From assembly GCA_038318485.1 (NCBI GenBank), contig JBBQCH010000001.1, forward strand, positions 3,434 to 67,433: a DNA stretch of 64,000 nt. The letters run 5' to 3'. The notes under the pieces are model-generated. The model saw nothing but the letters and a program-made list of their open reading frames with translations, was not told the DNA's origin and did not search any database. Source of the DNA: Geobacterales bacterium (GTDB lineage Bacteria; Desulfobacterota; Desulfuromonadia; Geobacterales; Pseudopelobacteraceae). Position 1 is the first letter of the stretch; every line of letters begins with the position of its first letter. Below are positions 3,621 to 44,683 of this stretch, in pieces. The translations under genes were made by a program, and so were the position numbers.

Positions 3621-4466
3621 TCATACCCAGCGGCCGGCGGTGTAATGCAGTATGCGCCGGTTCAGGCTGCGTTTAAGGCGATCCGGCAGAAAATAGGTTC
3701 CCAGCAACTGCAGAAAAGCTCGCAGCCGCTGGACGGGACCCGCAGCACGGGCAATTGAATTCATTTCCTGCCGATAAGCAACATTCTGGCGCGAGAGCTG
3801 CCCGGCATGGCTCCTGAAGCCGCCCAGGCAGGATTGAATGATCCATAGCTCGCTCTGGCGGGCAAAGCAATCCCAAAGAAAGAAATCACCAGCCAGTTTG
3901 AAGCGGCCCAGCTTCTCCGCATCCAGCACGGTCAGCAGAGCAGATCGCCAGAAAGTTGATTCCTGCTGAATGGTATTGATGTGAATGGTACCGTAAACTC
4001 CGCTACCGATCAAATCACGGCTGTATGCCAGCGGCAGAATGGTGCTGGTGACCTGCCCGGACTCGTTAAGCACGGTACACATGGCAGTGGCCCAGCTGAC
4101 TTCGGGATGAGCATCAAAAACAGCGGCAACGGCAGAAAGAGCGTTGGGAAAGTAGATATCATCAGCGTTGAGATAGGCGACCACCTCACCCGAGATGAGG
4201 CCGAATCCTTTGGCTAGTGCGTCGTACATGCCGCTGTCAGGCTCGGACAGAACCTGCATGTTCACCCCGCGACATGCCACCTGAATATGGCCGGATTCCA
4301 GACGTTCACGATATGAATTTGCAATCGCAAGTGTGCGGTCGCTGGATGCGCCGTCAATGATGAGGTATTCCAGCTCAAAGTCGCCGCGTTGGGAAATGAC
4401 GCTTTCAATGGTTTCGGCAATAAAGCGTTCAGCATTGCGGCAGGGAGTTATAATCGATATTTTCAT
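3621..4466 (-). CDS. family 2 glycosyltransferase
   Basis: MKISIITPCRNAERFI...IIDGASSDRT is a GT2 N-terminal signature. AAGGA lies 7 nt upstream of the ATG at 4466, and the upstream GTG at 4481 is less likely. Confidence 0.8.
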   Translation of the reverse strand: MKISIITPCRNAERFIAETIESVISQRGDFELEYLIIDGASSDRTLAIANSYRERLESGHIQVACRGVNMQVLSEPDSGMYDALAKGFGLISGEVVAYLNADDIYFPNALSAVAAVFDAHPEVSWATAMCTVLNESGQVTSTILPLAYSRDLIGSGVYGTIHINTIQQESTFWRSALLTVLDAEKLGRFKLAGDFFLWDCFARQSELWIIQSCLGGFRSHAGQLSRQNVAYRQEMNSIARAAGPVQRLRAFLQLLGTYFLPDRLKRSLNRRILHYTAGRWV

Positions 4467-12285: not shown

Positions 12286-12461
12286 GAGAAAAAGCCTTTA
12301 CACTGATTGAGGTTATGGTAGTTATGGCTATCATCACAATATTGGCAGGAATGATGATGCCGGCTGTCTGGAAGTTATTGCAAGTAGCAAAATCGCGTCA
12401 GATTAAATTTGACATTGTACCAGTACCAACCATTGTTACTCTTGGAGGATGCCCAACATGA
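12282..12461 (+). CDS. 59-codon prepilin-type N-terminal domain ORF (truncated pseudopilin?)
   Basis: This ORF is below the ORF-track cutoff. It reads MREKAFTLIEVMVVMAIITILAGMMMPAVW..., the class III signal/methylation motif, but with Ala instead of Gly before FTLIE. Its ATG overlaps the pilC-fragment stop (ATGA), and its end overlaps the crcB start. Confidence 0.5.
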   Translation: MREKAFTLIEVMVVMAIITILAGMMMPAVWKLLQVAKSRQIKFDIVPVPTIVTLGGCPT

Positions 12462-12832
12462 AGACGGCCGCAACAATCGCCCTGTTCTGCGCCGGTGGAG
12501 GACTTACCCGCTATTACCTTTCAGGCTGGATTTACAGTCTGCTTGGAAGAGCGTTCCCATATGGCACCCTGGCAGTCAATATCACTGGTGCTTACCTGAT
12601 AGGTTTTATCATGGAGCTGGGCATGCGTAGCACTGTCATTCCCGACTCTCTGCGTATTGGCCTGACAGTAGGTTTTATGGGCGGTTTAACTACCTTTTCG
12701 ACCTTCAGCTATGAAACATTTAAATTATTGGATGAGGGCCAACTGGTTTTTGCTTTTGCAAATATTGCAGTGAGTGTATTGGCCTGCCTATTGTTCACCT
12801 GGCTGGGCATTATCACCGTTCGAGCGTTCTAA
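12458..12832 (+). CDS. crcB: fluoride ion channel CrcB/FluC
   Basis: Contains GGLTRYYLSGW...YGTLAVNITGAYLIGF...GFMGGLTTFSTFSYE. GGAGG lies 9 nt upstream of the ATG at 12458. Confidence 0.85.
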   Translation: MKTAATIALFCAGGGLTRYYLSGWIYSLLGRAFPYGTLAVNITGAYLIGFIMELGMRSTVIPDSLRIGLTVGFMGGLTTFSTFSYETFKLLDEGQLVFAFANIAVSVLACLLFTWLGIITVRAF

Positions 12833-14150: not shown

Positions 14151-14834
14151 ATGAAACCAACCCTGCCCCGCGTCCTTCCCTTTGCTGTTTTCATGGCGTT
14201 CATTGGCGTTGGCGAGTTATTGCGCACTCTAATTGAGCACGGTTTCATCGGACTGGATCCAACAGCGCTATATTATATTTATCCTGTAAAAACCGTTGTT
14301 GTCGGCTGTCTGCTTTATAGGTACAGGAAAGTATATAACGAAATAAGCTTTAAAGAACTGTCAACAATACCGACAACCCTGGCAGTTTTTTGTGTGGGTG
14401 TGCTGGTATTCGCACTCTGGATCCAGATGGACTGGACATTGGGAACATCCGCGACGCCAACCGGGTTCAACCCGGCATTATTCACGAACAAGACTGTACA
14501 GATTGTCATGACATTTTTCAGGATTGCCGGAGCGGTACTGGTTGTGCCGCTGATGGAAGAGCTTTTCTGGCGTTCATTCCTGATCCGCTATATCATCGAC
14601 AACAATTTCATTAAAGTTCCGATTGGAACATTCACCTGGGCCTCCTTCCTTCTGACCATCGCATTGTTCGGAGCCGAGCACAACTACATCTACGCCGGTG
14701 TCATGGCTGGAGTCGTGTACAACCTGATTCTCTACAAAACCCGTAGCCTGACCCAGTGCGTACTGGCCCACGCCGTCACCAACCTGGCCCTTGCTATATA
14801 TGTAATTACAACAGGTAAGTGGCAATTTTGGTAA
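14151..14834 (+). CDS. CPBP/CAAX-type intramembrane protease, PEP-CTERM-locus type
   Basis: Polytopic protein with the MEELFWRSF (EExxxR) and FGAEH...LAHAVTNLAL motifs. Its neighbourhood matches the CAAX prenyl protease-related family described for exosortase loci. Confidence 0.75.
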   Translation: MKPTLPRVLPFAVFMAFIGVGELLRTLIEHGFIGLDPTALYYIYPVKTVVVGCLLYRYRKVYNEISFKELSTIPTTLAVFCVGVLVFALWIQMDWTLGTSATPTGFNPALFTNKTVQIVMTFFRIAGAVLVVPLMEELFWRSFLIRYIIDNNFIKVPIGTFTWASFLLTIALFGAEHNYIYAGVMAGVVYNLILYKTRSLTQCVLAHAVTNLALAIYVITTGKWQFW

Positions 14835-15015
14835 AAATGAATGAAATTTTATCAAAATAATGTCGGCCATTTGATGATTTTACCGCAGTATCAGCAAGTT
14901 GGCTTATACATACAGATTGACTTTTAAAGTAATTTGTGGTGTTACACTTAAACAGTATGACGAGTTGAGCTCGGTCATCCATATACATTTGATATCCAGG
15001 CCTCTGGAGGAACCA

Positions 15016-15690
15016 ATGTTTGAATTTAAAAAGTTATCACATAACGACCCGTTACTTGAAGAAGTCTACAAACTGCGCTACAAGGTCTATTGTGATGAGT
15101 GGGGATTTGAGCGACCTGAGGATCACCCCGGAGGAATCGAGCGGGATGAGTTCGACGCACATTCGGTCCATTTTGCTGCGATAAGAAAAGAGGACCAAAA
15201 ACTGATTGGAACTACACGAATAATTTTACAATCCGAGTCAGGTTTCCCAATTGAAGAACATTGTTGCATAAACGAAGATATTTTGAAATCCGACAAAGCG
15301 CTCTGGGGTGAAATTTCACGTTTGGCGGTTTCCAAGGAATTTCGTAAAAGAGCTGGCGACGATTCCATTTACAAGCATGAGGATCCGCAAACTAACAATG
15401 TAAACAATCCTTTTAAGGAAAAGCGAAAGAATGAAAACCAGATAGTTATCGGTTTATACCGCTGCATTTATCATGAAAGCCTGGAGAGAGGACTGACCCA
15501 TCTCTACGCAGTCATGGCCAAAGGTCTTTTTCTTTTGCTAAACAGAATTGGTATTTGCTTTATTCAGGTTGGACCAGGAATTGAGTATCACGGATTAAGG
15601 ACACCCTACATTTGCTGTATTCAGGAAATTATGGATAACTTTTCCAGGATCAATAACAATCTTTACCAATGCTTCGTCGAAAAGGATTAA
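15016..15690 (+). CDS. PEP-CTERM/exosortase-associated acyltransferase (N-acyl amino acid synthase-like, LuxI-related fold), copy 1
   Basis: GGAGGA lies 7 nt upstream of the ATG. Motifs are VYKLRYKVYCDEWGFE...DEFDAHSVHFAA...EISRLAVSKEFRKRA. Confidence 0.75.
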   Translation: MFEFKKLSHNDPLLEEVYKLRYKVYCDEWGFERPEDHPGGIERDEFDAHSVHFAAIRKEDQKLIGTTRIILQSESGFPIEEHCCINEDILKSDKALWGEISRLAVSKEFRKRAGDDSIYKHEDPQTNNVNNPFKEKRKNENQIVIGLYRCIYHESLERGLTHLYAVMAKGLFLLLNRIGICFIQVGPGIEYHGLRTPYICCIQEIMDNFSRINNNLYQCFVEKD

Positions 15691-15823: not shown

Positions 15824-15851
15824 GGCCGCTATTAAACATAAAATGATAGTC

Positions 15852-15965
15852 GAGAATACTAAACCATTCGTAAGGATGGGACGGAAAGCCTACGGGTCTT
15901 AACGAGACAGCCGGGTCGCCGAAATATCTAAACAGATATAAGGCACCCGGTTTTTGCGTTTTCTG
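15852..15965 (+). promoter_or_regulatory. GEMM-I-type cyclic-dinucleotide riboswitch with intrinsic terminator (copy A)
   Basis: AAACCAUUC-GUAA-GGAUGGGACGGAAAGCCUACGGGUCU...AGACAGCCGGGUCGCCGA aligns closely to the Vc2 c-di-GMP-I aptamer. It has a GNRA-capped P1a, a P1b hairpin and a P1 stem (AGAAUA/UAUCU). The terminator CCGGGUCGCC/GGCACCCGG plus a U-tract shares its 5' arm with the aptamer. Confidence 0.8.
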
Positions 15966-16034: not shown

Positions 16035-16832
16035 ATGTCCAAAACGATGATGAATTTGGAGCGCAGAACGCCAGTCGTGAGTAATCTTGAAATGCAGGAC
16101 AGCTTTAATAGCAGGTATGCTGTAATTACTGCCGACACACTAGCACTGCAGGAACAGGCCTATAAATTGCGCTACCAGGTTTACTGCAAAGAAAGAAACT
16201 TCGAAAACCCGGATGCCCACCCACTGGAACAGGAGATAGATGAGTTTGATGCCCGCTCCGTCCATTCCGTTATCATTGATCGTCCCACTCGAGCAGTAAC
16301 CGCAACTGTAAGATTGATTCTGCCGAATCCGGATGGCTTTGAAAAAAGCTTTCCGATTCAAGGAGTCTGCAGTCACCCGATGCTTCGTAGCCATAAGCTC
16401 TTACATTCAGCACGATCAGCCGAAATTTCACGGTTTGCAGTTTCAAAGGAATTCAGCCGCAGGGCAACTGACAGTCACCAGTCCCGACAACGCATTGATC
16501 CTCGCAGCGAAAATCAGGCATCCATGCCGAACATCACACTGGGACTGATGAATGGTATCGTACGGATGAGCGTAGAGCATGGAGTTTCCGAGTGGTTTGC
16601 GGTCATGGAACCCACACTGTTACGCCTGTTGGCTCGCTTCGGCATCTATTTTTCACCCATCGGACCAATGGTTGACTATCACGGCATGCGCCAACCGTGT
16701 TACTCCAATATGCATAAACTGCTGGACAGAGTCCATAAAGAACGCATAGATGTTTGGGAGATCATTACTGATAACGGAAGACTGCTGGACGGTGAAGATC
16801 ATCAGTATCCTTCACTACGCTTTATCAATTAG
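16035..16832 (+). CDS. PEP-CTERM/exosortase-associated acyltransferase (N-acyl amino acid synthase-like), copy 2
   Basis: GGAGG lies upstream of the ATG at 16035. Motifs are AYKLRYQVYCKERNFE...DEFDARSVHSVI...EISRFAVSKEFSRRA, and it is a paralog of copy 1. Confidence 0.75.
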   Translation: MSKTMMNLERRTPVVSNLEMQDSFNSRYAVITADTLALQEQAYKLRYQVYCKERNFENPDAHPLEQEIDEFDARSVHSVIIDRPTRAVTATVRLILPNPDGFEKSFPIQGVCSHPMLRSHKLLHSARSAEISRFAVSKEFSRRATDSHQSRQRIDPRSENQASMPNITLGLMNGIVRMSVEHGVSEWFAVMEPTLLRLLARFGIYFSPIGPMVDYHGMRQPCYSNMHKLLDRVHKERIDVWEIITDNGRLLDGEDHQYPSLRFIN

Positions 16833-19924: not shown

Positions 19925-21631
19925 ATGCGGATACTACCTCTATCACTTCTGCTGGTAATGACATTAACCATCCAGCCAGCCTCAGGCAGAACACTCTCAC
20001 TCGAAGAGTGCCTTCAGATGGCCCTGAAACAGAACAGCGGCCTTAAATCATCTAAGGCAGCCACCTTGTCCGCTGCAGAAGACGTGACCATGGCTAAGAC
20101 GGCTTTATTGCCATCGTTAAAACTTAAAGGTTTTTACACAATATCTGACAAATCCAACAACCTGACAATTGACTCCAATGCCTTTGCGACTGGACTTCCG
20201 CGCCAGAAAACAGACCTTTCTCTGGGGGATAAAGACTCTTACGGCTTTAACCTCACTCTGCGTCAACCTCTCTTTACCGGTGGAAACCTCACAAACGCAA
20301 GACAAGTGACCAAACATGAATATGCCGCCGCCACTCATGCATATTCACGACAACGCACCTTAATGTTATTTCAAGTCAAAAAGACTTTTAATGAAGCATT
20401 GATCGCTTCAAACCGTATACAGACAGCAGAAATGGCAGTAAAGGCTGCTGAAGAAAGACTGGAAGTGACCGTTGCTCGCCTGGAAGAAGGTTATGCCGAC
20501 CGCGAAGAAAAGCTGCGGCGCGAGGCGGATCTTGCCATGGCAAATACCCGCCTGATTAAAGTCAGGAATCGCTCGTTTCTGGTGCTGGCCAAACTACGTC
20601 AACTGACTGGATCCGGACCGGGCGAAGAGATTGAAGTCATTGGCCATCCCGCAAAACTGACCCTGACAGGTAGCCTGGATGATCTGACAAAGGGTACTTT
20701 CGACCGCCGTGAAGACATAAAAAGTGCAACTGAAAAAAGTATTGCCGCCGAGTCCGGTGTACTTGTAGCCCGCAGTGGATATCTCCCGCAAGTTTTTCTG
20801 GAAGGCAATTATCTCCGCCAGAAGGAAACCAGCATTGCCCACCCTGAACTATGGTCGCTGACATTGCAGGCCGAATGGTCACTGTTCGAATGGGGACGCA
20901 CTTCTTCCGCCGTGCGCCAGGCAGTTGCCCGCCAAAGTCAGCTGGATCTTGCCAGGGAAGAGCTAGAACGAAGTGCCAAACTGGAGACAGAGGAAGTATG
21001 GCGAGAGGTAGTCGAGCAACAAAGCCAGGTCATTGCCCACGAAAAGATTGTAAGGGCAGAGGAAGCCGCCTTTGTCAAAACCATTGACAGATACCTTGAA
21101 GGAGCGGCACGCTTGGATGAGGTCATATCCGCAGAATCGGCTCTATGGGAAGCTTATGATGTCTATTGCCAAAGCGCTGCCAACCTAAGCAGTGCCTTTG
21201 CTGCCCTGGAAGCTGCGACATCGGCACATCTGGATCAGTGGACCAGTACCGAAGATTTATATCGCCCTGACTTTAAGTTCTATGCCAGCCGCATAAAAAG
21301 CCGTACCTTTACAACTCCTGTTAAAACTGAGAAACAAGTAACCGTTACAGCCCAGCCAGAAGCCAAACAAACAGCGGTGACAACAGAGCATGCCGCCCTC
21401 TACTTGCAATTGGGTGCTTTTTTATCCAGAAAGAGCGCTGAGGATCTACTGGCGTTATTAACTCCAAGGTTTGGCGAAAAACATACTGAGATACTAAAAG
21501 AAGGTAAGCTCTATAAACCGGTTATCTTCCCTTATTCAGACAGTAAAGCTGCCGAAAAAGCAGCTGCTGATCTGGGAATCAAAGAGTATCTGATAAGGAG
21601 TGAGCATGGACCGCGACAAGTTTCTCCATGA
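19925..21631 (+). CDS. TolC-family outer membrane channel with C-terminal SPOR domain
   Basis: A signal peptide and two TolC repeats (LSLEECLQMALKQNSGLK...) are followed by a roughly 75-aa C-terminus, LYLQLGAFLSRKSAEDLL...GKLYKPVIFPYSDSKAAEKAAADL, that matches the SPOR pattern. Confidence 0.8.
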   Translation: MRILPLSLLLVMTLTIQPASGRTLSLEECLQMALKQNSGLKSSKAATLSAAEDVTMAKTALLPSLKLKGFYTISDKSNNLTIDSNAFATGLPRQKTDLSLGDKDSYGFNLTLRQPLFTGGNLTNARQVTKHEYAAATHAYSRQRTLMLFQVKKTFNEALIASNRIQTAEMAVKAAEERLEVTVARLEEGYADREEKLRREADLAMANTRLIKVRNRSFLVLAKLRQLTGSGPGEEIEVIGHPAKLTLTGSLDDLTKGTFDRREDIKSATEKSIAAESGVLVARSGYLPQVFLEGNYLRQKETSIAHPELWSLTLQAEWSLFEWGRTSSAVRQAVARQSQLDLAREELERSAKLETEEVWREVVEQQSQVIAHEKIVRAEEAAFVKTIDRYLEGAARLDEVISAESALWEAYDVYCQSAANLSSAFAALEAATSAHLDQWTSTEDLYRPDFKFYASRIKSRTFTTPVKTEKQVTVTAQPEAKQTAVTTEHAALYLQLGAFLSRKSAEDLLALLTPRFGEKHTEILKEGKLYKPVIFPYSDSKAAEKAAADLGIKEYLIRSEHGPRQVSP

Positions 21632-22469
21632 TGCATTCTCACGTAACTTAGGCCTGCTGAGTGAATCAGACCAGCACCGCCTGCTTGATGCTCGGATTGC
21701 CGTTGCAGGAGCTGGAGGCGTTGGTGGATTGCATCTCCTGACCCTGGCCCGGATCGGTGTCGGAAAATTTAACATCGCTGACTTCGACACCTTCGATGCG
21801 GTCAACATCAATCGCCAGTACGGTGCCTTCATCAGTACGCTTGGCAAACCTAAAGCCGAGGTAATGAGTGACATGGTGCGGGATATCAACCCGTTTGCCG
21901 ATGTCCGGCTTTTTCCGCAGGGAGTCACGCTGCAGAACCTGGATGATTTTCTGGAAGGTGTTGATATTTATGTTGATGGGATTGATTTTTTTGAGATTGA
22001 TATTCGACGGGCAATTTTCAACCGCTGTCGAGAAAAGGGGATCATTGCAATAACTTCAGCTCCGCTGGGCTTTGGCGCTACATTGCAGGTATTTACACCG
22101 CAAGGCATGTCATTTGATGATTACTTTGCCATACAAGATGGCATGGGGCAGCCGGAAAAAGTGGCTGCCTTTGCAGCCGGCCTGGCACCCCACCCTTACC
22201 ACATCAAGTATCTGGATCTGTCCAAGGTAGATATGGCAAACAAGCGTGGACCAGCCTTGGCGCTGGCCTGCACACAAGCCTCCACCCTGATAGCAACGGA
22301 GACGATCAAGATTCTAACCGGCAAGGGCACTGTACGACCGGCTCCCGCCTACCTCCAGATCGACCTGCTTCGAAACAAGTACACCCGGGGCTATCTTTGG
22401 CTGGGTGGAAAAAACCCGCTTCAAGCTCTGAAGCGCTGGATCATACTGAAAAAAGTGAAGGCAGCCTGA
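21606..22469 (+). CDS. ThiF/MoeB/HesA-family E1-like adenylyltransferase
   Basis: IAVAGAGGVGGLHLLTLARIGVGKFNIADFDTFDAVNINRQ is a Rossmann/ThiF signature. AAGGAG lies 5 nt upstream of the ATG. Confidence 0.8.
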   Translation: MDRDKFLHDAFSRNLGLLSESDQHRLLDARIAVAGAGGVGGLHLLTLARIGVGKFNIADFDTFDAVNINRQYGAFISTLGKPKAEVMSDMVRDINPFADVRLFPQGVTLQNLDDFLEGVDIYVDGIDFFEIDIRRAIFNRCREKGIIAITSAPLGFGATLQVFTPQGMSFDDYFAIQDGMGQPEKVAAFAAGLAPHPYHIKYLDLSKVDMANKRGPALALACTQASTLIATETIKILTGKGTVRPAPAYLQIDLLRNKYTRGYLWLGGKNPLQALKRWIILKKVKAA

Positions 22470-22522
22470 ATATGAAATTGGATTTGTTTATTGATATGTA
22501 ACACATTCATTAGAGGGATATC

Positions 22523-23305
22523 ATGACCCAGGACTCTGACCTTCAAAAAAATCAATTCATCAAACTTGTCGGCCTCTCCTCCTTTCTTGAACAGCAGGGC
22601 AGCCTGGATGAATGCCTGGACGAGATTGTCGCCAAATCGGCCAGTATCCTTAACATAAAGAACTGTTCAATAATGCTGTTCCGCGAAGATGAACTTGGTG
22701 ACGGTGTCAGCCTGCGAATGTTCTCCAAGTATGGAGAATTCCCTGTATCAGCTTACAACGAGGCTGTTAAAGTCAACAAGGGCATTGCCGGTCGTGTTGC
22801 AGCATCTGCCCGCCCCCTGTTAGTTCAGGACATCCAGAAGTCAGAATATTTGCCGCTCGCCCGTACACCCGACTCCCCCAGCAAAAGCTTTATCTGTGTT
22901 CCGATCGTGATTGGGGGCAAAGTTATCGGTGTCCTGAATGTCAGCAACCCGATTGACAATCGCAGTTTTGATTACAACGACCTGAATGTATCCGTGTTTG
23001 TTACTCTTTTGATCGGCAGATCAGTACAGGTCATTCAGCTGCAGAATCTCCTTAAATCAAGGTTTGCTCAACTGGCAGTCATGCAGGAAGCAAAGGTGAT
23101 AATGGAGGATAAATTCTCAGTGAATAATTATGACGCAGAAATGATGGTCAAAATGGTCTCCAAATCTTTCTATAAAGAAATGAACAAGGCCGGCTTTACC
23201 AAAAACCATATTATTAACGCGGCAACAGAGATAATCGGACTGCTGCATGAAAGCCTGCAACGTCATGACCAACGGAGCCAACGAGAAACTGAGCGGGAAT
23301 CATAA
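22523..23305 (+). CDS. GAF-domain protein
   Basis: CSIMLFRED...GIAGRVAASARPLLVQDI...FICVPIVIGGKVIGVLNVSN is a typical GAF core. I recognise no output domain. Confidence 0.7.
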   Translation: MTQDSDLQKNQFIKLVGLSSFLEQQGSLDECLDEIVAKSASILNIKNCSIMLFREDELGDGVSLRMFSKYGEFPVSAYNEAVKVNKGIAGRVAASARPLLVQDIQKSEYLPLARTPDSPSKSFICVPIVIGGKVIGVLNVSNPIDNRSFDYNDLNVSVFVTLLIGRSVQVIQLQNLLKSRFAQLAVMQEAKVIMEDKFSVNNYDAEMMVKMVSKSFYKEMNKAGFTKNHIINAATEIIGLLHESLQRHDQRSQRETERES

Positions 23306-23323
23306 GCACCTTAAGGAGTGAGC

Positions 23324-24394
23324 ATGGATGAACGTATTCGTAAAATCATAGAAGCTGGAATCAAAGCTCCTTCTGGCGATAACTGTCAACCATGGAAATT
23401 TCAGGCAGATGAGAACAGAATCAATCTATTCAATGTTCCCGAGAGGGACACCTCGCTTTACAACTACAAGCAACGTGCTTCACTTGTCTCCCACGGCGCC
23501 TGCATAGAAAACATGTTAATTGCCGCAAGAAAATACGGATTCCTGACAGAACTGAGCTACTTCCCGACACCGGACAATCAACAGCATGTAGCAAGACTAA
23601 GTATGTCTGACTCCGAGACCTCAGATGAACCGCTCTTCGCTGCCATCTCAGAAAGAAGCATCAATCGGAAGCCCTACCAAAGCGGAGTGCTCTCTCCAGA
23701 AGCCGCTGACAGCATCTGCCAAGCGGCAACCAATACTGAAGTTCCGGGGTGCTCGCTCAAACTGCTGCTGGGGAAAGAAAAGGAAACTGCTGCCGACATT
23801 GTAGCCCTAAGTGATCGTCTGGTTTTTGAAAACCCGCATCTGCATGGTTTTCTCTTCGATCACATTCGCTGGAATCAGGAAGAAGCAGAGCATACCAGAG
23901 ATGGGTTGGATATCCGCACCCTCGAACTTGCACCCCAGGACAAGGTGCTGTTTCCACTTCTCAAACATTTCGGGCTGGTCAAATTCATCAGCATATTTGG
24001 TGCAACCAGGATGATTGCCGCAAACGCCAGAAAACTGATGTTGTCGGCCTCGGCCGGCGGAATAATCACCATTGCGGATTCCTCAGCAGAAAGCTGGCTC
24101 AATGCCGGACGAATACTGGAAAGGGTCTGGCTGGAGGCGACCAGGCAGGGACTGGCGTTTCATCTGATGACGGGGATTACTTTGATTGTTCAGCGGGTTC
24201 GAGACGGAGAGCAGAATGGGTTTAGCAACAATAACAGTTCACTGGTGAAACAAGCTGATATCTTATTGACGCAAGCTTCAGGAACTGAACTTCCAGTTGC
24301 ACTACTTTTCAGAATCGGTGTTTGCAACCAACCGACTGCCCGTTCGTTGCGCTTTGGGGTGGATGCTGTGACTGCAATTGGTAAACAAGTTTAA
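23324..24394 (+). CDS. tandem nitroreductase-fold FMN oxidoreductase (Acg-like)
   Basis: IIEAGIKAPSGDNCQPWKF is followed by a second nitroreductase-like half, about 355 aa in total. Confidence 0.7.
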   Translation: MDERIRKIIEAGIKAPSGDNCQPWKFQADENRINLFNVPERDTSLYNYKQRASLVSHGACIENMLIAARKYGFLTELSYFPTPDNQQHVARLSMSDSETSDEPLFAAISERSINRKPYQSGVLSPEAADSICQAATNTEVPGCSLKLLLGKEKETAADIVALSDRLVFENPHLHGFLFDHIRWNQEEAEHTRDGLDIRTLELAPQDKVLFPLLKHFGLVKFISIFGATRMIAANARKLMLSASAGGIITIADSSAESWLNAGRILERVWLEATRQGLAFHLMTGITLIVQRVRDGEQNGFSNNNSSLVKQADILLTQASGTELPVALLFRIGVCNQPTARSLRFGVDAVTAIGKQV

Positions 24395-36895: not shown

Positions 36896-39847
36896 CTAGG
36901 CGGCAAGGGTGTTGACGCCCAGCGAATAGGAAGCGGTTGGCCAGGAAAAACTGTACGGCACAGCAGTTTTTGCGGCAAAAAGTTTGCCGTTTATGTAAAG
37001 ATCCACCCTGGTAACGGCGACATTGTCAGTCGCGGACACATTAACAGTAGTTGCGGCACTGACAGCAGCACCGTTAACTGGCGAAGTAATAACAGCAGTG
37101 GGCAGAGTTTTGTAGTTATTCACTGACACTGTAATAGTAGCGGACTGTCCCAGGTTTCCGGCCGCATCATAGGCCTTCACGGTCAGGGTACAGCTCGGGT
37201 AATTCCAATATCGCTTTGTATCCAGATTATAGCTGTAGGGAGCTTTGGTGACCGTGCCCAGCAACGTCCCATTTAGATAAAACATCATCTTGACAACTTC
37301 CTCATTGTTCGAAGCAACGGCAGCAATAGTCACTGTGCCGCTCAGAACGGCATTCGGTGCGGGAGCGGTAATGGATACAGTTGGCGTGATAGAGTTCGCC
37401 ACCATGTTGTTCACCCGCACCGTATTGAAAACCTGTGACTGGTTTCCTGCCATGTCAAAGGCTTTGGCCATCAGGACATGGGAGCCATTAGCAAGAGTCG
37501 TGGTGTCCAGACTGTAAGTGTAAGGGGCAGTGTTGAGCACGGCCAGCATGATTCCATCCTGATAGAACTCCACCCGCTTGACTCCGCCAGTGTCGGCTGC
37601 AGTTGCAACAACCGTGATCTTTCCAGCCACAGTGGAGTTGTTGGCAGGCGCGGTCAGTGAGACCGTCGGAGGGGTGGTGTCCGGCAGCGGATTGTTCACC
37701 TTGATTGTGATCAGAGCTGACTCCCCCACGTTGCCGACCGCATCATAGGCTCTGGCAAGCAGACTGTAGCTGCCGTTGGTGACTAAAGCGGAATTCCAGC
37801 TAAAACTGTAGGGACCCGGTGCCGGATCAGTGGCCTGCAGCACACCATTGACATATAATTCCACTTTTGTAACAGCCACGTTATCATTTGCAGTGACGCT
37901 GACGTTCACCAGACCGCTAAGGGTGGAGGCATTGACGGGAGAACTGATGGCAACGTTCGGAGCAGCCGTATCCATGGCCGGCGGCACGAAGGCGCCGGCC
38001 GATGTGGTGATTGTAACGGACCCATAGGAACTGTCACCCAGAGTATAGATCCCGGTGCTGGTGAGGGCATCCCATGCGGTGGCACTGCTGTCCGGATTTG
38101 ATTTGAACAGGGTTTGGCCGTTAGCCGGATTATGCAGTTCGACCACATGGGGGCGAAAAGCCGCTGTAATCGGTGTAGCGCTCTGGGTCAGTCCGCTATT
38201 GTTTTTGAGCTCATAGTCATACACCATGAATTGCGCCGTACCATCAGCACCGGTAGTCGCCTGGGTCTGCAGTACATTGTTTCCACTGTAGATATTAATG
38301 CCGGTATTAGGCAACAGAGTGCCAGAAGCGTCACGCCCCACCCCTTTCATCAGCCGGCCAAAGATGACGGACTTGTTCTTGTTTGGGTACTGAAAGTTCA
38401 TTCCCAGTTTATTCTCAGCCGCTCCTCCCTGATACGCATTGGAGATGAAACGTCCGGTGCCTTCCCAATAACCGTTAAGCCCGGCGCCGATGGTGGCATA
38501 GGCGGGGTAGTTGTCAACCTTAATAAAAGTGTTCTTGATGAAGAGCGGATAACCGGCACAGTCACCGTATTCATCGCTGAGCGCCACATTCAGAATATTG
38601 CTGGTAACGGTGTTGCCTTCAAAGCTCATGTTACCCACGTTGCCGCCGGTACAGGCAATGCCGAAGGCTTGGCCCTTGCCATCCTTGTCCAGTACTGTAA
38701 TTGTATTATTATTGAATTTGGAACTTTCTCCAGCGTTAACAGCCACCATCAGACCGCGGCCCTTGCCGTTAACCAGCACTTTTTGAGCGGTCGGTGAATA
38801 GCTTCCCTGATAGGTCGCATCGGTGTGGATCATAATCGTGTTGTTGTGGAAATTGATATTATTGCCGCCCCAGGTGGTGCGAAACCCGACCGCGTAATTG
38901 CCGCAGGGGGTGGCAGTGTTAAAGCAGGCCGCACTACCTCCATACTCATCGCCGATCCTGGTTGTCTGAGCATCAATCTTGTTATTATAAATTTCAATAT
39001 TATTGGTGCCAGCTGACACAAAGCCTATCCCGATTGGATGTTCGCCTCTAGCTGTAATCTGATTGTCATACACTTTGACATTTTGTGCCTTATATCCAAA
39101 TATCCCATAGGAATTGGTGGCCAAGCTGTTAATGGTTATGTTGTTTCCATACACCAGATCCTGATCGAATGCCGTAATTCCTCGCTGCCTCGCGTTTATG
39201 ATGGTATTGTTCCTGATAACGTTACACGTTGAACCGACACCAGTCGCACAGACTATGGAATCCACTCCCTGCATCCTGTTCTTGAGCGTGCCGTTTGTCC
39301 AGCCATCCTCAAGTATGTTATCCTCAATGATGCTCACATAGGCCAGTAACTTGAATCCGCCGACATCCCTTCCTCCATATCTTGCATGTATGCCGGCAAT
39401 CTGAAGCCTTGTCACACCTTTGGTTTTTACTGGATTATTTCCGGCACCATAAACATCCCCTTCTGACAATGCGGCGCCCTGTATAATCGAGCCGTTGGTT
39501 ATGGCAATATCGGATAGATTATATGTATCAACCGTTACACCCTCCCCAGGAGTGGTCTGATTATAAGTGATAGTGTTGCCATTGAGGTTTAAAACCACTT
39601 TTGATGCTCGAATAGCAATGGCTGTGCCATTCGCAGAAATATCCCGGTCCAGTATATATTCGGTGTTGGGAGTAGTGATGATGTAGGGAGTTGTGTAATT
39701 GCCACCGGCAATGTGCACCGTGTTGGTTACATACTGGCGGGAGAGGATGGTGGCGACTGATGCACCTGCGGCGGGGAATACCGGTAAGAAAAGAATAACT
39801 GCGGTGATAATTCCAGTAAACCTGGTAAAAAACGATCTGCTGATCAT
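36896..39847 (-). CDS. secreted right-handed beta-helix protein with C-terminal tandem Ig-like repeats
   Basis: AAGGAGG lies 6 nt upstream of the ATG at 39847. The signal peptide is MISRSFFTRFTGIITAVILFLPVFPAAGA. The N-terminal roughly 600 aa has repetitive N/G/T-rich PbH1-like turns and is a paralog of 42818-44683. Repeats of about 95 aa follow, each containing (V/A)TA.D..GV.KVEFY..G and AYDaaGN. Confidence 0.8.
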   Translation of the reverse strand: MISRSFFTRFTGIITAVILFLPVFPAAGASVATILSRQYVTNTVHIAGGNYTTPYIITTPNTEYILDRDISANGTAIAIRASKVVLNLNGNTITYNQTTPGEGVTVDTYNLSDIAITNGSIIQGAALSEGDVYGAGNNPVKTKGVTRLQIAGIHARYGGRDVGGFKLLAYVSIIEDNILEDGWTNGTLKNRMQGVDSIVCATGVGSTCNVIRNNTIINARQRGITAFDQDLVYGNNITINSLATNSYGIFGYKAQNVKVYDNQITARGEHPIGIGFVSAGTNNIEIYNNKIDAQTTRIGDEYGGSAACFNTATPCGNYAVGFRTTWGGNNINFHNNTIMIHTDATYQGSYSPTAQKVLVNGKGRGLMVAVNAGESSKFNNNTITVLDKDGKGQAFGIACTGGNVGNMSFEGNTVTSNILNVALSDEYGDCAGYPLFIKNTFIKVDNYPAYATIGAGLNGYWEGTGRFISNAYQGGAAENKLGMNFQYPNKNKSVIFGRLMKGVGRDASGTLLPNTGINIYSGNNVLQTQATTGADGTAQFMVYDYELKNNSGLTQSATPITAAFRPHVVELHNPANGQTLFKSNPDSSATAWDALTSTGIYTLGDSSYGSVTITTSAGAFVPPAMDTAAPNVAISSPVNASTLSGLVNVSVTANDNVAVTKVELYVNGVLQATDPAPGPYSFSWNSALVTNGSYSLLARAYDAVGNVGESALITIKVNNPLPDTTPPTVSLTAPANNSTVAGKITVVATAADTGGVKRVEFYQDGIMLAVLNTAPYTYSLDTTTLANGSHVLMAKAFDMAGNQSQVFNTVRVNNMVANSITPTVSITAPAPNAVLSGTVTIAAVASNNEEVVKMMFYLNGTLLGTVTKAPYSYNLDTKRYWNYPSCTLTVKAYDAAGNLGQSATITVSVNNYKTLPTAVITSPVNGAAVSAATTVNVSATDNVAVTRVDLYINGKLFAAKTAVPYSFSWPTASYSLGVNTLAA

Positions 39848-40039
39848 GCTAAACCTCCTTGGTTTTGTTGCTCCTAGAAAAACAGGACACCGTGGAGGTG
39901 AGGCGGTTCTTCGGTAACCCAGCCATCCTGTCGTCACAGGACCTGTAGCTTTGTGCCCCCCGGTTGCCCGAGGTTTACCCTTTTCGGAAGCAGTTATATA
40001 TGCGTGGTACCTGTTAAATCAGAAAATTGTGTTTCAACT

Positions 40040-40168
40040 CTAACAAAAAAAGCCGGATCGTCAATACATCAGGGGTTGTTATCCTTGATATTTCGGCGAC
40101 CCGGCTGTCTCTGTAAGACCCTTGGGCTTTCCGTCCCATCCTCACGGATGGTTTAGTATTATCGTATA
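40040..40168 (-). promoter_or_regulatory. GEMM-I-type cyclic-dinucleotide riboswitch with intrinsic terminator (copy B)
   Basis: The reverse complement matches copy A at about 68 of 75 aptamer positions. Differences fall in the GNRA loop (GUGA versus GUAA), one stem pair (C-G versus U-G) and loops. The terminator is GCCGGGUCG/CGAUCCGGC followed by U7. Confidence 0.8.
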
Positions 40169-42817: not shown

Positions 42818-44683
42818 TTAATAGGAGAGTGTCAACTTTTTTTCCACAGCAAGAACACCGCCCAAATAGAGTCCTGGTGAATAGGTTCCTATACTGGTAA
42901 ATGTATCCCATGCGGAGGCGGTATTGTCAGGTCGTGTAGAAAATGTATCCGTTCCAATAACAGCCTGTATAGTATGCGGACCTAGTTTGCGGGTCAGAGG
43001 TTTAGTGCTGGTGTTGTTGCCGTCATACAGCTCGTAGTCATAGACGATCAGATTTACCCTACCACCGGCATCTGTTGTCGACGAAGAATCAAAAGGTGCA
43101 CCGCCATTTAGCAGAGTAATAGCTGCCCCTTCAATGCGTTTAGCAGTTGTAGTCTCCGATAGGATGCCAGAAATCTCTCTGCCGAAATAGACCGACTGGC
43201 GCCCCTTTCCGGCAGCATTGATATTAATATTTTTCTGCGAAGCCCCGCCTTTATAGATATTTGATACAAACCGCCCGGTACCTTCGAAATACCCTCCGAA
43301 CTCAGATGCAATAGTGCTATAGACAGTAAAGCTATCTGCTTTTATAAAGGTATTCCTGATGAACAATGGATGGTTGCTGCAGGCGCCATACTTATCACTC
43401 AGAGCGACATTCAGAATATTGCTGATGACAGTGTTTCCCTCAAAGGTCATGTCACCAGCGTTGTTGCCAGCACAGGCGATGCCGAAGGCCTCGCCCGAAC
43501 CATCCTTGTCTAGCACCGTAATCTTATTGTTATAGAATTGTGATTTTTCACCCGCATTGATCGCCACCATCAGTCCGCGCCCTTTTCCATTGACAGTTAC
43601 AGGCTTGCCGGTGGGAGAAAAGCTGCCCTGAAAGCGGGAATCGCTGCGTACAACAATCGTATTATCATGGAAGCTGATCTTGTTGCCGCCCCAGGTGGTC
43701 CTGAAGCCTACGGCATAGTTGCCGCAGGGGGTGGCGGAGTTAAAACATGCCGCACTTCCACCGTACTCTTCACCGATTCGAGTAGTCTGTACGTCGATGG
43801 AATTGTTGTAAATCTCGATATCGTTGGTGCCGGCAGAAACGAAACCGATTCCAATCGGATGCTCGCCGTTGCCGGTGATGGTATTATTGTAAACCTTCAC
43901 ATGCTGGGACTTGTATCCCATGATTCCATAGGAGTTGGTGGTCAGGCTGTTGATAGAAATGGAATTGCCATACACCGCACCATGGTTACCAATGGAAATC
44001 CCTCGTTGGCGGGCATTGATGATTTTATTATTACGGACAATATTATTAGAATCTGTGGCCTGGATTGCATCTATGCCCTGATGCCTGTTTTTCATGGTTC
44101 CCGCGGTCCAGACATCTTCCAGCGTGTTGTTCTCAATCAAACAATTGGCCACATACTGCAGCTTGAACCCGCTGACATCCCTGCCGCCATAACGAGCATG
44201 AATCCGGGCGATGTGCAAACCGCTAAAACCTTTGGACCTGATCGGATTGTTTCCCCCCCCATAAACATCACCTTCCGACATGGCCGCACCCTGGAAGATC
44301 TTGCCATTAATAATTGCGATCGTGGATTTGTTGTAGACATCTATGGTAACACCTTCACCGGGAGTGGTTTGATTATAGGTGACGGTCTTGCCGTTTAGGT
44401 TTACAACCACATTTGAGGCGCGAATGGCAATAGCGGTGCCATCGGCGGCCATATCTCCATCCAGTATATATTCAGTGTTGGGAGTACTGATGATATAGGG
44501 TTTCGGATAATGCCCGCCCGGAATAGCTACGGTTCTGGTGACATGCTTGCGCACGCTTGTTTCAGTATCAAGGCTGGTGGACGCAGCAGCAGAGTTTTCT
44601 GCATGGGCACATTCACCCCAGGCCAGAACACAACATAAGCAGGCAAAAAACCATTTCATCGACATGGAACCCCCGGTTTTCAT
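42818..44683 (-). CDS. secreted right-handed beta-helix protein (paralog of 36896-39847, without Ig repeats)
   Basis: The ATG at 44683 overlaps the upstream GT2 stop (ATGA), and alternative ATGs lie at 44665 and 44659. The signal peptide is MKWFFACLCCVLAWGECAHA. Long colinear identity runs with the other beta-helix protein, for example TPNTEYILD...GTAIAIRAS...YNQTTPGEGVT...HARYGGRDV. Confidence 0.8.
   Translation of the reverse strand: MKTGGSMSMKWFFACLCCVLAWGECAHAENSAAASTSLDTETSVRKHVTRTVAIPGGHYPKPYIISTPNTEYILDGDMAADGTAIAIRASNVVVNLNGKTVTYNQTTPGEGVTIDVYNKSTIAIINGKIFQGAAMSEGDVYGGGNNPIRSKGFSGLHIARIHARYGGRDVSGFKLQYVANCLIENNTLEDVWTAGTMKNRHQGIDAIQATDSNNIVRNNKIINARQRGISIGNHGAVYGNSISINSLTTNSYGIMGYKSQHVKVYNNTITGNGEHPIGIGFVSAGTNDIEIYNNSIDVQTTRIGEEYGGSAACFNSATPCGNYAVGFRTTWGGNKISFHDNTIVVRSDSRFQGSFSPTGKPVTVNGKGRGLMVAINAGEKSQFYNNKITVLDKDGSGEAFGIACAGNNAGDMTFEGNTVISNILNVALSDKYGACSNHPLFIRNTFIKADSFTVYSTIASEFGGYFEGTGRFVSNIYKGGASQKNININAAGKGRQSVYFGREISGILSETTTAKRIEGAAITLLNGGAPFDSSSTTDAGGRVNLIVYDYELYDGNNTSTKPLTRKLGPHTIQAVIGTDTFSTRPDNTASAWDTFTSIGTYSPGLYLGGVLAVEKKLTLSY

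Follow-up and report, generated by a model that had tools for sequence, protein, structure and literature searches.

A 64,000-nucleotide stretch of DNA from a Geobacterales bacterium (GenBank assembly GCA_038318485.1, contig JBBQCH010000001.1, positions 3,434 to 67,433; hereafter the window, always at its full length) carries two riboswitch aptamers of the GEMM-I fold, (a) and (b), whose preferred physiological ligand is, judging from their sequences, likely to be 3',3'-cyclic GMP-AMP (cGAMP). They lie about 24 kb apart on opposite strands. Aptamer (a) precedes a gene for a PEP-CTERM/exosortase-associated acyltransferase, and (b) stands in the leader of a gene for a secreted beta-helix protein, together with a third GEMM-I aptamer, (c). 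We assign (a) and (b) to the known GEMM-Ib class of Geobacter, because every sequence-level feature of the class that we examined is present in both. The signature that they carry is not a new variant but the invariant core of this class, which was described in 2015, and they are thus new members of it.

We scanned the window with the Rfam covariance models (cmscan) and assigned positions from the resulting structure-aware alignment (Table 1). Both (a) and (b) exceed the gathering score of RF01051 (35 bits), with 52.3 and 48.0 bits. Beyond the three GEMM-I aptamers, the window gave no other Rfam match, even at E <= 0.05. Model position 11, the unpaired base immediately 5' of the first pair of helix P2, is A in both copies; its counterpart in the Rfam consensus is the first G of GGCAAAcc, i.e., G20 of Vc2, the canonical GEMM-I riboswitch of Vibrio cholerae. 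The next two positions, the 5' halves of the lowest P2 pairs (marked '<<' in the model), are C and U where the consensus has G and C, and their partners ('>>') are G and G where it has G and C. The junction accordingly reads GACGG against a consensus of GACGC, within the string GGACGGAAAGCC. In Vc2 numbering, (a) and (b) share with Vc2 the common fold (RF01051) and the equivalents of A47 and C92, but have A20, C21-G46 and U22.G45 where Vc2 has G20, G21-C46 and C22-G45. P2 is capped by a GNRA loop (GUAA in (a), GUGA in (b)). The 36-nucleotide pattern AATACTAAACC-N12-GGGACGGAAAGCC matches the window exactly twice, at (a) and at (b), against 0.00 matches expected from 100 shuffles.

A preliminary description of positions 15852-15892, which span the 5' strand of helix P1, A20, the P2 hairpin and the junction of (a), had aligned both copies to Vc2, and had placed an A at the equivalent of G20 and a C-G pair in place of G21-C46. 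The covariance-model alignment returns the same assignment for both copies, and the A is indeed the G20 equivalent. The pair beside the C-G, absent from that description, is a U.G wobble in (a) and in (b).

The residue-by-residue comparison was made with the pilM riboswitch (Gmet_0970) of Geobacter metallireducens, a transcriptional ON switch with a measured affinity for cGAMP (PMC9262584), whose full sequence is GAUAUCGACAAUACUAAACCAUCCGCGAGGGUGGGACGGAAAGCCUACAGGGUCUCUCUGAGACAGCCGGGAUGCCGAAAUAUC, followed by a terminator (supplement of PMC9262584). Over pilM positions 6-84 (79 nucleotides), identity is 83.5% for (a) and 87.3% for (b), but 57.8% for the G20 aptamer (c). In addition, (b) is 92% identical to a riboswitch of Geomonas oryzae. 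The two aptamers and pilM have in common the strings AAUACUAAACC and GGGACGGAAAGCC, the A at the G20 position, the C-G and U.G pairs at the base of P2, the GNRA loop of P2, the 3' strand of P1 (GCCGAAAUAUC), and a terminator built from the 3' strand of the aptamer. In pilM, the lower G.U pair of P2 is U15.G38, and C75 is the Watson-Crick partner of the guanine of the ligand (PMC9262584). The sequences differ in the 5' strand of P1, the internal and hairpin loops of P3, and the terminators. The changes within P2 stay paired (U-A and U.G replacing U.G and C-G), the internal loop of P3 is one nucleotide shorter, and UC replaces AU at pilM 72-73. The genes downstream differ too: pilM controls a pilus assembly operon, whereas (a) precedes the acyltransferase and an exporter, and (b) the beta-helix protein. 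The A20 variants of Geobacter had been said to prefer cGAMP, and pilM, which carries the same ACU...GG as the window copies, bears this out: it binds cGAMP, and its A20G mutant has its selectivity turned to c-di-GMP (cyclic di-GMP; PMC6456294). The pilM-like core, together with the identity to pilM, supports the proposal that cGAMP is the likely ligand of (a) and (b).

A second characterised member of the same subclass is Gs1761 of G. sulfurreducens (GSU1761, pgcA; GSUR3008; structures 4YAZ and 4YB0), which controls an extracellular cytochrome. Its wild-type U72 and C73 are consistent with GGGUCGCC in the window, and we take its sequence to read AAUACUAAACC...GGGGCGGAAAGCC as well. In Gs1761, the G20 equivalent is A14, which pairs with the adenine of cGAMP, and A11, A12 and A41 contact the ligand (PMC6140456). 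This riboswitch was reported to be about 1200-fold selective for cGAMP (PMC6456294), with dissociation constants (Kd) of 0.53 nM against 660 nM, while Vc2 disfavours cGAMP, with a Kd of 10 uM against a picomolar one for c-di-GMP (PMC6140456). All the ligand-contacting positions are present in (a) and (b). On the model of the Gs1761 and pilM structures, A15858 and A40157 (the G20 equivalents) would pair with the Hoogsteen edge of the ligand adenine, C15919 and C40096 (the C92 equivalents) would form a Watson-Crick pair with the ligand guanine, and the adenine equivalent to A47 would intercalate between the two ligand bases.

To place (a) and (b) among their relatives, we used scans of genomes and metagenomes for AAACC-N-GGRCGGAAAGC(C). 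The genome scan, with its loose spacer (N7-27), returned mostly chance matches and did not reach G. sulfurreducens; the tighter metagenome scan was far cleaner. The counts that follow are samples and refer to the matches listed. Among the real GEMM-I matches with G46, the triplet at positions 20-22 was GCC in 73, ACU in 32, GCU in 4 and ACC in 1 (metagenome loci L128-L247). Position 21 is C whenever position 46 is G, in all of these roughly 110 matches, and this covariation backs the alignment, as the preliminary description had held. That description had also taken the C-G swap as a pointer to cGAMP, a claim that does not survive. It accompanies G20 more often than A20 (73 GCC against 32 ACU), mostly in contigs labelled Desulfobacterota or delta-proteobacterial, so it is a feature of the lineage and not evidence for cGAMP, and we rejected it as a signature of this ligand. 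The base that travels with A20 is instead the U22.G45 wobble, found in 32 of 33 matches with A20 and in 4 of 77 with G20 (73 of the 77 have C22), although the ACU sequences are a single close-knit family, whose relatedness inflates the association. One aptamer, at locus L159, reads ACC: it is a natural single G20A change in the GCC-type background of its close relatives (GCCGAUAAAGCC...).

We then aligned 37 distinct ACU-type aptamers, including pilM, the two window copies, the Geomonas oryzae riboswitch, and sequences from several metagenome-assembled genomes (MAGs) and metagenome contigs. In this alignment, 46 of the 85 columns are invariant, among them A20, C21, U22, G45, G46, A47 and C92, and (a) and (b) match all 46. 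The C21-G46 and U22.G45 pairs are unvaried in all 37 sequences. When the 37 sequences are laid on the GEMM-I structure, 92.5% of the cells are paired and five pairs have changed on both sides, and none of 500 shuffles was as good. Arrays made up solely of Geobacter-type A20 aptamers, two to four in a row, are frequent among the metagenome contigs (L244 6433-7031; L212 3277-3880; L135; L177; L220; L237; L241; L193; L130).

Several observations weigh against cGAMP as the preferred ligand, and they are the ones that favour the reading of (a) and (b) as bispecific or, in vivo, mainly responsive to c-di-GMP, i.e., as ordinary c-di-GMP-I riboswitches despite their A20. The Cbe 1-2 riboswitch of Clostridium beijerinckii, which we compared by description, also has an A at the G20 position of a GEMM-I fold. 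It comes from another lineage, is reported to be bispecific, and binds c-di-GMP about 15-fold better than cGAMP (30 nM vs 463 nM), which upholds the earlier caution that A20 alone is not fully predictive: A20 is necessary but not sufficient for a preference for cGAMP. The G20A mutant of Vc2 accepts either ligand; in isothermal titration calorimetry (ITC), the selectivity of Gs1761 amounts to only about 3-fold when P1 has been artificially stabilised; c-di-GMP can bind via a protonated A20; and the omcST GEMM-Ib riboswitch of G. sulfurreducens was reported to respond to both ligands (PMC6456294). Finally, no open reading frame (ORF) with a GGDEF motif (GG[DE]EF-type) and no cGAMP synthase was found within the 64-kb window, the part of the genome that was examined. 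We nonetheless consider this reading unlikely. Aptamers (a) and (b) are more than A20 variants, being 83-87% identical to pilM and matching all the invariant columns of the class. Moreover, (b) shares its leader with a distinct G20 aptamer, which would be superfluous if the two both sensed c-di-GMP; since (c) lies in the window with (a) and (b), the host keeps both A20 and G20 versions.

The affiliation of the host also bears on the question. Conservation of Hypr GGDEF enzymes has been stated for Geobacter, Myxobacteria and other deltaproteobacteria. The closest named homologues of the PrsR protein encoded in the window are from Desulfuromonadaceae (78%), Geobacter sp. FeAm09 (77%) and Desulfuromonadales (76%), and those of the acyltransferase are from Geobacteraceae MAGs. 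The host is thus most likely an uncultured member of Desulfuromonadia. These relatives support cGAMP as the ligand because their group is one in which both GEMM-Ib riboswitches and cGAMP signalling of the GacA type are documented, and we infer that the host has a cGAMP synthase. That (a) and (b) sense another cyclic dinucleotide (e.g., cyclic di-AMP or another mixed-base one), or are decaying copies without regulatory function, is highly improbable: nothing specific speaks for it beyond RF03167 scoring them about as well as RF01051, though under its 59-bit threshold (53.7 and 50.6 bits), and they have no G47, which defines that GGC variant; A47 and C92 are kept, so one ligand base should be G; the helices are maintained by covariation; and the aptamers, terminators and gene association are kept in orthologous loci down to 60% protein identity.

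Both aptamers overlap a predicted intrinsic terminator. A simple promoter/terminator scan missed the two terminators, whose loops are beyond its limits, and folding recovered them. The minimum free energy (MFE) fold of 15845-15958 is the terminator hairpin, not the aptamer (-38.2 kcal/mol, z = -3.73, 0 of 200 shuffles as stable). The 5' arm of this hairpin is the 3' strand of aptamer helix P3, GCCGGGUCGCC, and includes the C92 equivalent. For (b), the terminator stem is seen in both the MFE and the centroid folds. The terminator-aptamer architecture of (a) is also found in pilM and in the orthologous loci. Because the 3' strand of the aptamer is the 5' arm of the terminator, the two structures are mutually exclusive, as described for pilM (PMC9262584), and ligand binding should therefore permit read-through. 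Folding and homology thus suggest that (a) and (b) should be transcriptional ON switches. Without ligand, the aptamer 3' strand would pair with its downstream complement and form the terminator; with ligand bound, the aptamer would retain this strand and transcription would read through. The same direction of switching would be expected in vivo.

The acyltransferase gene that follows (a) is of the N-acyl amino acid synthase type, with a GGAGG 8 nucleotides upstream of its ATG. It is followed by genes for a DevC-/DevA-/DevB-like ABC exporter and a TolC-like gene, to about position 21631. The ACU-type aptamer and the terminator recur upstream of each acyltransferase orthologue examined, at 93%, 72% and 60% amino-acid identity, so the pairing of riboswitch and acyltransferase is conserved. 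A gene for a CAAX/Rce1-like protease and a second acyltransferase paralogue are also found near the orthologues, as in the window (14151-15690). The end of the (a) operon (21600-24394, + strand) holds a ThiF/E1-like adenylyltransferase gene, a NifA-N-terminal-like gene (weak similarity; possibly a GAF domain) and a nitroreductase-like gene (Rv1355c C-terminal or Acg-type), a set that is unusual beside an N-acyl amino acid synthase and an exporter. The whole window, with a G+C content of 47.6%, is a PEP-CTERM/exosortase exopolysaccharide locus: it encodes PrsK, PrsR, an exosortase and a PepA-like PEP-CTERM protein, along with a Wzm/Wzt-type ABC transporter, Wzy-like proteins (O-antigen ligase family) and many glycosyltransferases. 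It also includes a gene for a CrcB-family fluoride channel (12449-12832, + strand), upstream of which there is no match to a fluoride riboswitch, even at E <= 0.05.

Table 1. Coordinates of the aptamers, their key positions, terminators and downstream genes, in window numbering unless a locus is named.
Feature	Position	Strand	Details
Aptamer (a), GEMM-I fold, Geobacter GEMM-Ib (A20) type	15848..15923	+	RF01051 52.3 bits, E 2.3e-07
Key positions of (a)	A15858 (A20); C15859-G15884; U15860.G15883; A15885 (A47, intercalating); C15919 (C92)	+	cmscan alignment and pilM mapping
A20 equivalent of (a), then 5' halves of the two lowest P2 pairs	15858..15860	+	Maps to pilM A13, C14, U15
3' partners G15883 and G15884 in (a), then A15885	15883..15885	+	Pairing with U15860 and C15859
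Predicted terminator of (a): 17-bp interrupted stem (15909-15952), then U run	15909..15957	+	MFE fold
PEP-CTERM/exosortase-associated acyltransferase (N-acyl amino acid synthase type), first gene under (a)	16035..16832	+	TIGR03694, E 1.7e-79, 266.7 bits
Aptamers upstream of acyltransferase orthologues	L121 2269-2344; L122 4816-4892; L124 4810-4886; L125 1-60		
Aptamer (b), second Geobacter-type A20 aptamer	40167-40092	-	RF01051 48.0 bits, E 2.7e-06
Key positions of (b)	A40157 (A20); C40156-G40131; U40155.G40132; A40130 (A47); C40096 (C92)	-	
Predicted terminator of (b)	40045..40105	-	5' arm GCCGGGUCG (40105-40097, aptamer 3' strand), 3' arm CGAUCCGGC (40060-40052), then U7 (40051-40045)
Aptamer (c), G20 GEMM-I aptamer	39988-39909	-	Best model RF03167, 60.4 bits
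Key positions of (c)	G39979 (G20); G21-C46; U22-A45; A39952 (A47); C39914 (C92)	-	
983-aa secreted beta-helix and Ig-like repeat protein, downstream of (b) and (c)	36896..39847	-	ORF list; signal-peptide-like N-terminus

The third aptamer, (c), shares a leader with (b) (39909-40167, - strand), lying about 100 nucleotides beyond the terminator of the latter, and has the G20, A47 and C92 of the canonical c-di-GMP type in its sequence. Its best model, RF03167, describes the c-di-GMP-I-GGC variant, in which the equivalent of A47 is G, the middle letter of 'GGC' as we read it from the model consensus (GACGCGAAG). We rejected this variant for (c), where the position is A39952, and filed (c) under the canonical G20/A47/C92 type because A47 is present and its 60.4 bits are just above the 59-bit threshold. 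The RF03167 label on (c) would mislead; similarly, the second aptamer of locus L127 is called 'UAU' despite its G20 and C92.

The protein encoded downstream is identical to a database protein (P0121) with Big_7 and Big_13 Pfam domains. A 613-aa paralogue, 60% identical to its N-terminal beta-helix part, is encoded 3 kb upstream on the same strand (42821-44659, - strand), and no aptamer was found ahead of it. The order of an A20 and then a G20 aptamer before a beta-helix protein recurs in the ENA contig L126 (3867-3943 and 4028-4106), where the homologue is 57% identical, and in the JGI contig L135 (1654-731, - strand) three A20 aptamers precede a single G20 one. In Geobacter sp. FeAm09, both aptamers of the homologous locus (L127, 3711-3794 and 3861-3941) are of the G20 type. 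Which type stands first in the beta-helix leader thus varies between lineages: A20 in L126 and L135, G20 in L127. In L126, the public gene call is set at 4001, so that the annotated coding region takes in part of the leader with the second aptamer; translation probably begins at the ATG near 4170, which a GGAGG precedes.

Between (c) and the start codon (39848-39905, - strand), a CCUCC anti-Shine-Dalgarno (anti-SD) sequence can pair with the GGAGG Shine-Dalgarno (SD) sequence, and this hairpin is predicted both in the window and in L126 (4107-4170). It is lengthened on one side in the window (ACCUCC/GGAGGU) and on the other in L126 (CCUCCAU/AUGGAGG), and no clear coupling of the anti-SD/SD hairpin to the formation of the (c) aptamer was found.

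The leader with (b) and (c) (40167-39848, - strand) might be a natural two-input device that reads cGAMP and c-di-GMP in series, a proposal that we make tentatively. A cGAMP-type ON switch with its own terminator would come first, followed by a c-di-GMP-type aptamer that has an expression platform of its own; the gene would be fully expressed only at a certain combination of the two signals, and the device would be an AND gate if both were ON switches. The logic gates that a 2022 survey of tandem riboswitches gives as known do not include a cGAMP/c-di-GMP-I pair (PMC9481103), and such pairs were probably counted among its 347 c-di-GMP-I doublets. In G. sulfurreducens, GEMM-Ib riboswitches have been described in tandem, one such pair ahead of GSU1945 (PMC6456294), a gene whose expression drops (log2 -4.5) on deletion of the cGAMP synthase gene gacA. 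That tandem (GSUR3010 and GSUR3009) resembles (b) and (c) in arrangement and size, with two GEMM aptamers in series before a repeat protein of about 1000 aa, but both of its copies are treated as GEMM-Ib, whereas the second aptamer in the window is G20.

Rfam has no separate cGAMP model, so RNAs of the type of (a) and (b) will be labelled 'cyclic di-GMP riboswitch' by annotation pipelines; GSUR3008 of G. sulfurreducens is still annotated in this way. Recognising GEMM-Ib changes the signal that is predicted to control a locus, and a practical rule for this lineage is that ACU...GG marks the Geobacter cGAMP type and GCC...GG a c-di-GMP type. If cGAMP is indeed the ligand of (a) and (b), then in an uncultured relative of Geobacter and Desulfuromonas it would govern part of a PEP-CTERM/exosortase exopolysaccharide system, namely an N-acyl amino acid synthase with its exporter and a large secreted beta-helix protein. 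The described cGAMP regulon, which comprises cytochromes, pili and polysaccharide genes, would thereby be extended to a riboswitch-gene pairing that persists in relatives with as little as 60% protein identity.

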